Position numbers and translations under genes: made by a program. The notes beneath the pieces are model-generated. The model saw nothing but the letters and a program-made list of their open reading frames with translations, had not been told where the DNA came from and did no database searches. A DNA stretch of 63,232 bases, counting the filler, from Stramenopiles sp. TOSAG23-6 (Eukaryota): NCBI GenBank assembly GCA_900128565.1. It is 31 parts of 31 records of this genome, joined end to end, with 100 filler letters (N's around TTAATTAATTAA, not from the genome) between each part and the next. Parts side by side here need not be neighbours in the genome. Positions count along the whole stretch, not along the records: positions 57,253 to 59,180 come from LT638443.1; 30 more parts are not named here. The stretch is one strand, 5' to 3'. Positions within the stretch are counted from its first letter, which is position 1. The number at the start of each line of letters is the position of its first letter. This document shows positions 24,551 through 63,001 of this stretch, one piece after another.

Positions 24551-25479
24551 NNNNNNNNNNNNNNNNNNNNNNNNNNNNNNNNNNNNNNNNNNNNTTAATT
24601 AATTAANNNNNNNNNNNNNNNNNNNNNNNNNNNNNNNNNNNNNNNNNNNNAAATTTTTTTTTTTTTTTTTAGTTTTTTAAAATTTCTTTTCATACGAAAT
24701 TTTTTTCCTAACATTTTTTTTTTTTTTTTTTCAAAATTTTTTTTTTTTTTTTTCATAGGAAATTTTGTACCTAACAAAAAAAAATTTGAAAAAAAAAAAA
24801 ATATTTTTCACTGTATAGGGGATATCCTTATAATGGATTTGGAATGATGAATCCATATCGTATGGGACAAGGCGACGACCCCCCAAAACATCCGATGGCA
24901 AAAACTGCAGGTGCTGCTGCTGGTGGCACTGCTGGTGGTGCTGAAGCAGCTTAAGATATAACATAAAAAACCCAAAAAAACTAAGATTTCTCAAATTATT
25001 TTCTTATTTGAAATTCTCCCGAGATTTTTACATCAATCATTGCATACCAAATGGTGTTATGTACGAAAAATTGGTACGAATATACATTTCATATAATATT
25101 GAATAAAATGTACAGTATATATACTTATTGTATATGTTTTATTTGCGTAGATTGAGATTTGACAGATTTGAGTGTATTTTTTTTTGGGCTTTTTTTCTTC
25201 CATTTTTGTGGAGGAACAAACCTGTTTTGTTTTTTTTATTTTTGAATTTGAATTTGAATTTGCACCGTGTGTGTGTGTGTGTTTGTACTCCTACACGTAG
25301 TAGTTCATACATATTATACATATTATACATACATACATATATACTAAAACAAAGCAACACGTATACACGTATTGAACACTGTATCCGTAGTACACTTCTA
25401 CACCTCCTCTCGCCTCCTCTATTGATTCTTTTATTGATTCTATTATTGATCAACAACATCTTGCAATATCTATCAATAT

Positions 25480-55063: not shown

Positions 55064-55222
55064 GTACGTTTTATTTTTTTTTCAATTTCAAATTTATTTT
55101 TCGTACGAAATTTTGTACCTAANNNNNNNNNNNNNNNNNNNNNNNNNNNNNNNNNNNNNNNNNNNNTTAATTAATTAANNNNNNNNNNNNNNNNNNNNNN
55201 NNNNNNNNNNNNNNNNNNNNNN

Positions 55223-57152
55223 ATATTTGTCTTGATTAGTACAATCTATAAAATACTTCAAACAACATCAACAATATGACAAATATGAAAGAAATAAATA
55301 TACAACAATGATATCAAATATATTTGTCTTGATTCGTACAATATATACAATACTGAAAACAACATCAACAATATTATAATTATAAAACAAATGAATAAAC
55401 GACAATGATATCAAATATATTTGTCTTGATTAGTACAATCTATGAAATACAACAAACATCATCAACAATATCACAATTATAAAACAAATGAATAAAGAAC
55501 AATGATATGAAATATATTTGTCTTGATTAGTACAATCTATAAAATACTTCCAACAACATCAACAATATTATAATTATAAAACAAATCAAAAAACAACAAT
55601 GATATCAAATATTATTGTGTTGAGGTTTACGACATAATACCTACCAGAAGTTTTGTCTAGGATATCATAATAAAAAAACACATGAATAAACGACAATAAT
55701 ATCAATTATCGTTGTAATGATTTGAACAATATATAAAATACGCGCATCAACTATGTCAAACATTTTACAACTATAAAACAAATGAATAAACAACAATGAT
55801 ATCAAATATATTTCTCTTGATTTGTACGATCTATAAAATACTTCCAACAACATCAACAATACTATAATTTTAAAACAAATGAACAAACAACAATGATATC
55901 AAATATATTTGTCTTGATTTGTATAATATATAAAATACGGAAAACAACATCAACAATATCACAATTATAAAATAAATGAATAAACAACAATGATATAAAA
56001 TATATTTGTCTTGATATGTACAATCTATAAAATACGCAAAACAATATCAACAATATTATAATTATAAAAATAATGAATAAACAACAATGACTTCAAAGAT
56101 ATTTGCCTTGTTGAGTACAATCTATAAAATACTTACAGCAACAATATCAAAAATATTATAATTATAAAACAAATGAATAAACAACAATGATATAAAATAT
56201 TGTTGTATTGATTAGTACAATCTATGAAATACGAAACACAACATCAACAATACCACAATTATAAAACAAATGAATAAACAACAATGATGTAAAATATTGT
56301 TGTATTGATTAGTACTATCTATAAAATACTCCAAACAACATCAACAATATCACAATTATAAAACAAATGAATGATATCAAATATATTTGTCTTGATTAGT
56401 ACAATCTATAAAATACTCCAAACAACATCAACAGTATCACAATTATAAGACAAATGAGTAAACAACAATGATATCAAACATATTTGTTTTGATTAGTACA
56501 ATCTATAAAATACATCAAACAACATTAACAATATCACAGTTATAAACGAAATGTAAAAACAACGATGATATCGAATATAATTGTCTTGATTTGTACAATA
56601 TATAAAATACAATAAAAAACATTAACAATATCACAGTTATAAACGAAATGTAAAAATAACAATGATATCAAATATATTTGTCTTGATTAGTACAATGTAT
56701 TAAATACTGAAAACAGCATCAACAATATCACAATTATAAAACAAATGAATAAACAACAAAGATATCAAATATATTTGTCTTGATTAGTACAATTGATTAA
56801 ATACGTAAAACCACATCAACAATAACATAATTATAAACAAATGAATAAACAACAATGGTATCAAATATATTTGTCTTGATGAGTACAATTTATGAAATAC
56901 GGGAAACAACATCAACAATATCACAATTATAAAACAAATGAATAAAAAACAATTATATCAAATATATTTGTCTTGATTAGTACAATCTAAAAAATACTCC
57001 AAACAACATCAACTATATCACAATTATAAAACAAATGAATAAACAACAATGGTATCAAATATTGTTGTATTGATTTGTACAATATATCAAAAACGGCCAA
57101 CAACATCAACATTATTATAATTATAAAAGAAATGAATAAACAACAATGATAT
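55223..57152. repeat. AT-rich ~97-bp satellite, about 20 diverged copies
   Basis: Unit ~AACAACATCAACAATATCACAATTATAAAACAAATGAATAAACAACAATGATATCAAATATATTTGTCTTGATTAGTACAATCTATAAAATACTCCA. Confidence 0.95.
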
Positions 57153-57335
57153 NNNNNNNNNNNNNNNNNNNNNNNNNNNNNNNNNNNNNNNNNNNNTTAA
57201 TTAATTAANNNNNNNNNNNNNNNNNNNNNNNNNNNNNNNNNNNNNNNNNNNNAAAAATCTAAAAAAATTTGTTAGGTACAAAATTTTTTTACCAAAAAAA
57301 AAAAAAAATCGAATTTGAAAAAAAATAAAACATGC

Positions 57336-59126
57336 ACGTCGAAGCATCGGAAAGAATTTACGTCTATCACTATTTCCAATACGCCTGGCAGGACTAGCAT
57401 TTTTGAAACTGTCTTGCATAGTATTTGTATTATTTTCAGAGATAATACTTAAACGTTTTTGTATACTTTTTGTCGGGGTACTAAATAATTCAGCATCATG
57501 TTTGATTTCATTCTGGTTATGTTCATCTTGATACAAATCTTCGTCCCAACAACTTCTGCAGCCCCTAGTATTATGGATAATGAAAAAATATTTCAAAAAA
57601 AAATCATAAATTTTTGTTAGGTACAAAATTTCGTATGAAAAAAAAAATAAATTAGAAATTCATATGAAAACGTACACTACATCTACAAATACATTTCTTT
57701 AGCTCCTTCATCCAAGAAAGAGTATTTTCATCTGTGTCTGCGGCAAAGAATAATCCATGTTCGCTATGAGGGATATCCATATAAAAACATTTCGTGCTAC
57801 GACATAAATTACTATTTACTTTACCATTCGTTTCAATATTCTCCAGAGATCTGTATTTTGGAAAAATATTTCAAAAAAAATCTAAAAAAAATTGTTAGGT
57901 ATAAAATTTCGTACGAAAAAAAAATCGATTTTTTTGTTAAAAAAAAAAAATAAAACATACATTGTACAACCAGCAAGATTCACAATACGATGACAATGAG
58001 TATTAGTACCATTTCGTTTTTGTGAAATATCCTTTTTGGTAATATCATCAAATTCATACAAACACCCATTTCGAATCACAATCAGTCTACATCGCCATTT
58101 TCTTGTTTCTCCTGTTTTTCTCCAAAGTTTCCCAGACTTTTGCCAAACAAGAAAATCAGCAGCATGTATTTTTGGAAAATATTTAAAAAAAATTTGTTAG
58201 GTACAAAATTTCGTACGAAAAAAAAATCGAAATTCGAAATTGAAAACGAACATTTGGAACACCTGAAAGTAAAAATCTTTCTGAAAGAGTATGAACAGCA
58301 CATCTCATCATACTTGATTCACGGGACTCTGTTAAAGTAAATAAATCAGATATACTTACATTATACATGTATTTTGGAAAAATATTTCAAAAAAAAAAAC
58401 TAGAATTTGTTAGGTACAAAATTATATAAAAAAATAAATTCGATTTTTTTGTAAAAAAAAAACATAAAACATACATGATCAGATTACAATATTCTGGATT
58501 GATAGACGCGATAGTACGTAATAGTGTTTTAGCACTCTCTGAAATTTTATTTGTTGTAGAAGAGCGACAATTTGATAATTTTACTAATTGTCCAAGAGGC
58601 GATGGCATCTCAGAAAAATATTGAGACATCCCACGTATTGTGAAAAAATATTTCAAAAAAAAAAACTAAAATTTGTTAGGTACGAAATTTCGTATGAAAA
58701 AAAAACATTAAATTAGAAATTCATATAAAACATACACGTGGCCATTGTGAATCGAAATCATTTGAACTCTTTCTAAGATGTTCACTTGATTTTTGTTTTT
58801 TTCGATATTGTTCAATAAATTTTTTGGGAAGTTTTTTACCCAAGAATGTATTTTGGAAAAATATTTCAAAACAAATCTAAAAAAAATTATTAGGTACAAA
58901 TTTTCGTAGGAAAAATAAATTCGATTTTTTTGTTAAAAAAAAAAATAAAACATACATATCTCACAAGTCAGAGGATAAATACATAACAGACTTAACAAAT
59001 TACACGCCATTGAAACGATATATGAAGAGTCTTTCATATACAATATTCCAAGTAACTCACCCAGAGCAAGGTCAAATTGAAAATGGGATTCGTTCTGAAG
59101 AGACTCTCCGTGATCTCCTTTCATAT
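57336..59126 (-). CDS. PH-domain protein, 7 exons separated by family introns
   Basis: Spliced: KSGKLWRKTGETRKWRCRLIVIRNGCLYEF..IVNLAGCTIS..LFFAADTDENTLSWMKELK. Confidence 0.85.
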
Positions 59127-59280
59127 ATGTATTTTGGAAAAATATTTCAAAAAAAAAAAACTTAAATTTGTTAGGTACAANNNNNNNNNNNNNNNNNNNN
59201 NNNNNNNNNNNNNNNNNNNNNNNNTTAATTAATTAANNNNNNNNNNNNNNNNNNNNNNNNNNNNNNNNNNNNNNNNNNNN

Positions 59281-61409: not shown

Positions 61410-63001
61410 TTATGCTATTGCTTTAAATGCTGTACAAAATGTTATTTCTACTACTACTACTGAGTTGAATTACTTTGGTGATGAAAATTTTAAAAATAGT
61501 GAAAATTTTAAAAATAGTGAAAACTTTAAAAATAGTGAAAATTTTAAAAATAGTGAAAATTCTAAAAATAGTGAAAATTCTAAAAATAGTGAAAATTTTA
61601 AAAATAGTGAAACTGATGAAATAGAAAGAATGGAACAACAGTCCATTGAAATTGCTATTCAACAAGTTCAACATTTCATACAACAAAAACAAATAAGAAA
61701 ATTAAAACATATTGCAAAATTAGCTGCTCTTGGTGCACTTCAAAATGCAACTTATGTATGTTTTTTTTTAAATTTTGAAATTCAAATTTTTTTACTATGA
61801 TTTTTTTTTTTGTTTTTTTATAAAAATTTTGTACCTAACAATTTTTTTTAGATTTTTCTTGAAATATTTTTCCAAAATACATGGTGTTCATACAAAAGAT
61901 TACACTATTGATAAAGAAGCCCTTATAATGGCTGCAATAAGCGCTTGTAAAGCAACACAATGTGAACATTGGCTAGCATTAAAAATTGGTACAAAAATGG
62001 CTTTATATATATATAATCAAGAAATTAAACATCTTTATAAAAAAGCAAATAAAGATGGACATTTGACAAATCAACTTGATTCAATTGCTGTGGAAAAAGT
62101 ACGACATTGTTTTGATGTACAAATGGACCAAGAAGAGACTCAAGAAGAAGTTTTTTTGATGGTATGTTTTTATATCACGATTTTTTTTTTTAAAATTTTT
62201 TTTTTAAATTTTTTTAATTTTTTTTTTGTATGAAATTTTTTTTAAAAACAAAAAATAATTTTTTTTGATTTTTTTTAGAAATATTTCTTCACAGGATAGA
62301 TTATGTCTAAAGGTGTTGATGAGACAGAAGCTCATCAAATTGCTGAAAATGCAGTATTTCGTGTTTTAGAGGACATTGAAACATTGGATAGGGAACGCAA
62401 TGAAGAAATATTGTACGTTTCATTTTTTTTTCACATTTTTTTTTTTGTCGTAAATTTTTTTTTTTTTTTTTTTTTTTTAGTAACCCTAACCCTAATAATT
62501 TTGAAAAAAAAATTATTTTTCTTCACTACATAAAACGTATCAAAAAAGGAAAAGAAATTGTCAAACTTGCTGAAATAAAACAAGGTAAAATATTTGATGC
62601 CTACCAAGTTGCATTTGTTATGCAACAAAATGCAGAGCAAACCCTCAGAGACGTTCAAAATGATATGTATGTTTTATTTATTTTTTTTCGTACAATTATC
62701 TACAATTTTTTTTTGTAGGAAATTTTGTACCTAAACTAAAAAAATTTTTTTTTTTTTTTGAAACTAAAAAAAAAAAAAAATTGAAATATTTTTTTTGTAG
62801 GAAATTTTGTACCTAACAATATTTTTTTTTTTGAAACTAAAAAAAAAAAAATTGAAATATTTTTTTTGTAGGAAATTTTGTACCTAACAATTTTTTTTTT
62901 TTTGAAATATTTTTCCAAAATACATGGCGACTGCCGTTTTACCTTTTCAAAAAAAAGATGCTGCTAGACAACTTTCAATAGCACAAAAAGAATTGGCGAA
63001 T
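61410..63001 (+). CDS. Unknown helical protein, 5 exons, with NSENFK repeats
   Basis: In-frame joins across introns 61756-61882, 62162-62299, 62413-62531 and 62667-62925. Confidence 0.7.

Follow-up and report, generated by a model that had tools for sequence, protein, structure and literature searches.

The PH-domain locus and its introns

The window considered here, that is, the whole stretch of 63,232 nt analyzed from the assembly of Stramenopiles sp. TOSAG23-6 (GenBank accession number GCA_900128565.1), is made up of 31 contigs of about 2 kb each with N spacers between them. One contig (positions 57253 to 59180, 1,928 nt; LT638443.1) is filled by a minus-strand locus for a PH-domain protein, which is interrupted by introns of a single repeated family whose 3′ ends are mostly AT. 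These introns, their copies elsewhere in the genome and a U1 small nuclear RNA (snRNA) whose 5′ end fits their donors are the subject of this report. The assembly is incomplete (21.1 Mb in 6,236 contigs). For two proteins of the genome, the best named match was to GSMAST32, the label of a EukProt record, with oomycetes and brown algae next in rank; from this label, the host appears to be an uncultured marine stramenopile (MAST).

The features of the locus are given below in the order of transcription, with a slash marking the exon-intron boundary.

59127 to 59180, minus strand: family intron truncated by the contig end, of which the 3′ part with the branch motif and the CAT end is present
58956 to 59126, minus strand: exon 1 of the contig, 171 nt, a single open frame; an RNA contig of metatranscriptome run X4 lies over 59005 to 59129
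58846 to 58955, minus strand: intron 1, AT/GT..AT, 110 nt, branch A at about 58890; use of the internal AG at 58877 leads to a stop
58736 to 58845, minus strand: exon 2
58633 to 58735, minus strand: intron 2, GT/GT..GT, 103 nt, GT duplicated; in-frame AG alternatives at −33 and +24
58475 to 58632, minus strand: exon 3
58367 to 58474, minus strand: intron 3, AT/GT..AT, 108 nt; in-frame AG alternative at +12
58252 to 58366, minus strand: exon 4
58164 to 58251, minus strand: intron 4, AT/GT..AT, 88 nt; in-frame AG alternative at +27
57961 to 58163, minus strand: exon 5, encoding the PH domain's first half (Pfam match to model positions 2 to 43)
57851 to 57960, minus strand: intron 5, AT/GT..AG, 110 nt, register-discriminating
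57676 to 57850, minus strand: exon 6, encoding the PH domain's second half (Pfam match to model positions 63 to 104)
57573 to 57675, minus strand: intron 6, GT/GT..AT, 103 nt, register-discriminating; none of four nearby AGs keeps the frame
57336 to 57572, minus strand: exon 7
57253 to 57335, minus strand: 5′ part of a family intron with a GC donor (GT/GCATGTTT) and branch motif, truncated by the contig end

The positions, ends and lengths (110, 103, 108, 88, 110 and 103 nt) of the six complete introns are those proposed in an earlier, sequence-only reading of the window, and both truncated introns also have the splice sites that it placed there, a GC donor at 57335 and an AT acceptor at 59127. 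Its claim that the six removals leave one open frame was borne out: splicing leaves a single frame of 389 codons without a stop, compared with 29 to 34 stops in the unspliced frames, and when each acceptor was moved by −1, 0 or +1, only 2 of the 729 combinations were open, one of them being the proposed set. In-frame AG alternatives within 45 nt exist for introns 2, 3 and 4; for introns 1 and 6, given their donors (other donors were not enumerated), no frame-keeping AG was found within that distance. The AGs that lie 10 to 13 nt past the branch site of introns 1, 3 and 5 create stops and must therefore be skipped. In introns 1 to 4, the last two intron bases are identical to the two bases preceding the donor, so that removal from GT to AT and removal two bases upstream (AT..AC) yield the same mRNA, and only introns 5 and 6 discriminate between the two registers. 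An Rfam scan of the window gave no match.

Matched separately to the Pfam PH model (PF00169), exon 5 gave an E value of 1.9e−4 (22.3 bits) and exon 6 an E value of 0.022 (15.7 bits), each below the curated cut-off of 25.1 bits. The earlier proposal that the removals build a PH domain thus holds in part: the two halves match in order on consecutive exons, but only intron 5, with GT-AG ends, lies inside the domain, and since exons 5 and 6 alone encode it, the domain tests that intron alone. The view of this locus as the best single one for testing the system did not stand. A search for relatives with the PH exon found no longer homolog, half of the introns have AG alternatives, and the proposed check against transcripts yielded no junction in this gene in four RNA runs. 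The PH locus is a fair example of the family and a poor test of the system.

The intron family across the genome

A 19-nt branch pattern has 5,206 exact matches in the assembly, some of them on duplicated contigs; the reversed control has none. As a sample, 129 copies were called out of 750 loose branch hits in 521 kb (the window and fetched contigs) of the 21.1 Mb. The matrices used for calling covered donor positions +1 to +10 and acceptor positions −14 to −3 and were seeded on the window copies, the last two intron bases and the exon side were unscored, and five of the six complete introns of the PH locus are within the set. The median length is 102 nt. By their ends, the copies comprise 93 GT-AT, 8 GT-TT, 7 GT-GT, 6 GT-AG, 5 GT-AC, 3 GT-AA and 3 AT-AT introns and four single cases. 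In the acceptor, the family departs from the YAG of U2-type introns, with AT closing 97 copies and AG 7. Among the 122 non-AG copies, 59 lack any AG and 39 carry one between the branch site and the end.

At the donor, 122 copies start with GT, 127 have C or T at +4, 114 have G at +5 and 126 have T at +6, which matches pairing with U1 and, at +4 to +6, with ACAGAGA of U6, calling having been seeded on this motif. The branch motif GTACCTAAC, present in 96 copies, is complementary to U2 and is followed by a U tract; its branch A lies 34 to 65 nt (median, 43 nt) before the intron end. Copies can be aligned over a 30-nt branch block and a 20-nt end block, in which two linked subtypes were recognized, and the middles consist mostly of T and A runs. 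Removal at the predicted length left an open frame in 115 of the 124 copies with enough flank, compared with 33 to 39 when the length was altered by 1 or 2 nt in either direction, 26 in antisense and 10 unspliced. The open frames, the sample of copies and conserved proteins encoded at other loci of the genome thus back the earlier claim of family introns with mostly non-AG ends.

The seven copies that do not start with GT begin with AT, GA or, in one case, GC (e.g., L037:197-290, L023:9680-9772, L069:6898-7003 and L072:1033-1132). In one gene, ten family introns occur within 3 kb (L019:192-3171; contigs C13 and C14 are near duplicates).

A duplication of two bases flanks the introns

In 92 of the 129 copies, the intron ends in the same two bases that precede its donor in the exon, compared with 65.7 in shuffles. 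Copies with an upstream pair other than AT show the duplication in 14 of 44 cases (1.8 in shuffles), and neither count was reached in any of 100,000 shuffles. The exact 2-nt duplication extends to TT, GT, AC and AA targets; positions −3 and +1, just outside it, are uncorrelated. A match of two bases is what duplication of a 2-nt target site would leave and is typical of transposon insertion. The family further has three of the features by which introners are recognized, namely, many similar copies at unrelated sites, an orientation in sense to the gene and a duplication that supplies a splice site.

Conserved proteins favor the GT register

At the same 92 copies, both registers give the same mRNA, and the register was therefore read from copies at which they differ. 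In a carnitine acyltransferase gene, a TT/GT..AT intron without any AG (L079:3328-3418) leaves V at the junction if the register is GT and D if it is shifted. In 24 aligned homologs (2 of 26 hits, long repetitive proteins, were left out), this position is V in 9, D in none and a gap in 7; exact removal of the intron restores a conserved motif, and the next exon is aligned from its first residue. Two AT/GT..AG introns of an inositol-phosphate synthase gene give I in the GT register and S when shifted; among 120 homologs, I is present in 101 and 97, respectively, and S in none, the motif being absent from 15 and 12. At L069, the shifted junction creates a stop. Where the two copies of the pair disagree, AT is kept at the intron end in 19 cases and upstream in 7 (binomial P of about 0.03), as is expected if the intron end is the splice site. 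Junctions in an ion-channel gene (M versus N) and in PIGA (V versus G) were judged by the usual motifs of these proteins and are not counted as evidence.

The public model P0121 of the inositol-phosphate synthase gene (L083:1378-2928) splices out its two AG-ending family introns, reads on into the third and leaves out two segments of an open exon. Standard gene models of this lineage would be wrong at many genes, of which this model is one example.

A changed U1 fits the family donors

The only U1 found in the genome is present as two copies on duplicate contigs. Its Rfam match aligns over the whole model and includes the Sm site (E value, 3.2e−13; 54.1 bits, below the gathering score of 69.5), and it adjoins U2 and U4 in a packed cluster in which U5, U2, U1 and U4 stand head to tail (L006:9-645; G000:C1146); U6 lies elsewhere (L003). 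The spacers of 2, 23 and 5 nt suggest that the cluster is one processed transcript. The U1 begins with AAACGUACAUG (consensus, AUACUUACCUG) and carries three changes, U2A, U5G and C9A. A2 stands opposite donor position +7, which is T in 128 of 129 copies; G5 is opposite the C or T at +4 (52 and 75 copies, respectively); and A9 is opposite exon position −1, T in 110 copies and unused in calling. Together, the three changes complement AT/GTAYGTTT. On average, 9.3 of 12 positions form Watson-Crick pairs with this U1; the mean is 7.1 for a U1 of canonical sequence and falls to 3.6 when the register is shifted. There is some circularity in the intron-side counts and none in the exon-side count. Over the 521 kb, family donors are enriched 2.5- to 3.5-fold, whereas canonical donors are not enriched (GTAAGT, 197 versus 206 expected; AGGTAAG, 31 versus 36; ratios of 0.87 to 0.95).

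The remaining parts of the spliceosome that were found are close to the norm. U2 (GUAGUA), loop 1 of U5 and U6 (ACAGAGA) are standard, Slu7 is present, and Prp8, whose gene carries no family intron, has the same alpha-finger region as the human protein. In searches of the incomplete assembly, in which an absence carries little weight, U12 and U6atac gave no matches, METTL16 was not found by a family search, and no U2AF1-like protein was recognized by eye among 16 CCCH-finger matches. Close to its RNase H-like catalytic stretch, Prp8 has the sequence RPFLLDPME (L032:6116-6140), which departs from the usual motif there; ambiguous bases alongside make an assembly error possible. The U2-U1 cluster pattern had no match in metagenome contigs, and a 15-nt U1 pattern occurred at at least 117 loci, none of which, among the matches listed, matched the snRNA cluster over more than 43 nt.

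RNA data

Five seawater metatranscriptome runs contained 0.06 to 0.18 of the words, and four of them (X1 to X4, as contigs) were compared with the PH locus. Each gave 173 to 1,730 records, almost all on intron-family sequence and derived from other loci. Exons 2 to 7 had no RNA cover in the four runs, which has no bearing on whether the gene is transcribed. One X4 contig covers 125 nt of exon (59005 to 59129). Of its letters, 26 at the place expected for the rest of the intron and 17 at the other end do not align; the 26 hint weakly at splicing at 59127. A weak GT site lies at 59003, 48 nt before the donor of intron 1 and in frame with it, and the alignment of the RNA contig ends two bases away. 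RNA joints listed as junctions were rejected as repeat artefacts; among the joints listed, intron copies were linked to each other. Hundreds to more than 1,000 RNA-library contigs per run, also from poly(A) libraries, carry unspliced family sequence with foreign flanks, and these may represent pre-mRNA or retained introns, excised introns, or DNA carry-over.

Favored mechanism and alternatives

Taken together, the intron ends, the frame, the duplication, the U1 sequence and the register at protein level probably reflect an introner family that inserts at AT with duplication of 2 nt and is spliced by a retuned major spliceosome with exact restoration of the exons. The element would be non-autonomous and DNA-transposon-like, about 100 nt long with ends GTAY...ATAC, inserting mostly at AT and duplicating two bases. 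A U2-type spliceosome would then cut from the element's GT through the end of the downstream duplicate and so restore the original coding sequence; an AT target would give GT-AT introns, and a GT or TT target would give GT-GT or GT-TT introns. The changed 5′ end of U1 would pair with the upstream duplicate and the donor (AT/GTAYGTTT), the pairing of U6 ACAGAGA and of U2 at the branch site would act unchanged, and the 3′ cut would be set by the fixed branch site about 43 nt upstream and the conserved last 20 nt, with no scanning for AG. In introns generally, the G at intron position −1 pairs with the first intron base, as seen in spliceosome structures.

A farther-reaching version, which we hold tentatively and at slightly less than an even chance, is a transposon takeover in which the default splice code has passed from AG/GT...AG to AT/GT...AT, the single U1 has been re-spelled, canonical GTAAG donors are nearly gone, and the acceptor is found through the element's end block without AG, possibly without U2AF1.

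Several points weigh against the introner interpretation. The four RNA runs hold no splice junction in the PH gene, lariats not being visible in contigs. The frame is blind to shifts of 3 nt, since 112 to 114 of 124 copies stay open at ±3. The 129 called copies stem from 750 loose branch hits, and the seeding of the matrices on window introns makes the pairing counts at +1 to +8 partly circular. The test of the register with fetched homologs covers a single non-AG intron. The inverted repeat measures only 3 to 4 nt (GTAT/ATAC) and is imperfect beyond, and a search for Harbinger-type transposases (one family) gave five hits at two distinct loci, none with the family ends. The U1 score is below the gathering score, and a canonical U1 could lie in unassembled DNA. 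Finally, a preference for AT targets alone would place AT before the donor, so the exon-side fit of U1 is not proof of cause.

Some of these points bear on an alternative order of events, in which U1 and the acceptor rule changed first and ordinary old introns converged on strong signals. The short inverted repeat, the failure to find a matching transposase, the T and A runs of the intron middles and the presence of the same signals in diverged and AG-ending copies would all fit. Against convergence stand an exact duplication that is also seen at TT, GT, AC and AA targets, branch and end blocks that can be aligned in two linked subtypes, and thousands of identical 19-mers, and this order is unlikely. 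We consider it still less likely that the introns are removed by a non-spliceosomal or structure-guided route, as for the nonconventional introns of euglenids, or are excised at the DNA level. The intron ends are weakly complementary, and much unspliced family sequence occurs in RNA contigs; but RNA folding of five of the six introns is no better than that of shuffles (z of −0.6 to +0.9; the sixth at −2.1), and donor, branch site and U tract fit U1, U6 and U2.

The two remaining alternatives keep the spliceosome and move the cuts. If the true register lay two bases upstream, the introns would be AT..AC (minor-spliceosome introns or AT-AC introns of the U2 type), and the downstream duplicate would stay in the exon. 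The element does end in AC or AT, an A-first, C-last pair of intron bases is tolerated, and the mRNA would be unchanged at 92 of 129 copies. Set against this are the conserved residues, which favor GT at all three homolog-tested junctions, the stop created by one shifted junction, the loss of U1 pairing (3.6 versus 9.3 bases), the excess of AT kept at the intron end (19 versus 7) and the searches of the incomplete assembly in which U12 and U6atac were not found; the shifted register is thus very unlikely. Ordinary GT-AG splicing at nearby AGs, with CAT as the mere end of a transposon and small pieces of element or exon gained or lost, is in our view the most improbable. It could draw on the in-frame AGs of introns 2, 3 and 4, on the 39 of 122 non-AG copies with an AG between branch site and end, and on the two AG-ending copies spliced in P0121, but introns 1 and 6 offer no frame-keeping AG given their donors, 59 of the 122 non-AG copies are free of AG, and exact removal of the AG-free carnitine acyltransferase intron restores a conserved motif.

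Comparison with known systems

In Fritillaria borealis and F. pellucida, introns derived from miniature inverted-repeat transposable elements are spliced by the major spliceosome, with 3′ AT in 34% and 44%, respectively; the intron end recurs in front of the donor, the minor spliceosome is absent, donors are mostly non-GT and diverse, and the route runs through N6-methyladenosine (m6A) changes and a duplicated U2AF, not U1 (PMC13326754). The MAST family shares the frequent 3′ AT, the repeat before the donor and, as proposed, the use of the major spliceosome. It differs in that one family here keeps GT and U1 itself is changed (positions 2, 5 and 9), and in belonging to another eukaryotic supergroup.

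The introners of Micromonas pusilla and of stramenopiles are short and non-autonomous, bring the donor and take the acceptor from a target-site duplication, with the coding sequence restored; in them, a 3-nt duplication supplies a normal AG (PMC11282704, PMC12130899). The origin of the acceptor in the target duplication and the restored coding sequence are common to both, whereas the inverted repeat is very short here and the 2-nt duplication gives AT, GT or TT, and an altered acceptor rule is therefore needed.

In Entamoeba and Mastigamoeba balamuthi, the pairing region of U1 is altered to suit an atypical donor (10.1101/2022.06.08.495308). The ACGUAC core is the same here as in M. balamuthi, and pairing extends to +7 as in Entamoeba (10.1101/2022.06.08.495308). 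The changes described for these two all face intron positions; in the MAST U1, C9A in addition complements exon position −1, and the family has a non-AG acceptor. Donors with a pyrimidine or U at +4 are tied to loss of METTL16, and the yeasts concerned are stated to have no compensatory U1 change (PMC10581693). The MAST family resembles them in its C or T at +4 (127 of 129) and in METTL16 not being found in the incomplete assembly, and differs in its changed U1.

The new element, and the main addition made here, is a U1 changed to fit family donors, including C9A on the exon side. A literature search found no report of GT-AT introns or of a changed U1 in MAST; most subscription journals were outside its scope, and supplements of introner surveys could list the family.

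U12-type introns have RTATCCTT-like donors, may have AT-AC ends and are expanded in Physarum. The shifted reading of the present family likewise gives AT..AC, and a conserved branch motif is present, but the donor is GTAYGT, U12 and U6atac were not found in the incomplete assembly, and the conserved proteins favor the GT register. From the nonconventional introns of euglenids, the family differs in its U tracts and in the lack of a stable end-to-end fold in five of six introns.

Few signals of eukaryotic genes are conserved as strongly as the terminal AG of introns. A family in which most sampled introns end in AT and keep a GT donor isolates the 3′ problem, namely, the docking of U in place of G and the skipping of nearer AGs, and a U1 fitted to transposon ends would directly exemplify joint change in mobile DNA and the core spliceosome.

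Other sequences of note

A Harbinger-type transposase gene faces a second open reading frame on a stretch that is identical on four contigs (L225:1-3498; G000:C2432, C2433, C2439 and C2440), and one branch motif of the intron family lies between the two. Tandem double or triple branch blocks occur in some copies (positions 24701 to 24764, 26203 to 26269, 34035 to 34068 and 62724 to 62877 of the window) and may reflect nested insertion, slippage or misassembly. A further contig of the window (55164 to 57152) is occupied over its whole length by units of about 97 nt in tandem, in some 20 copies.
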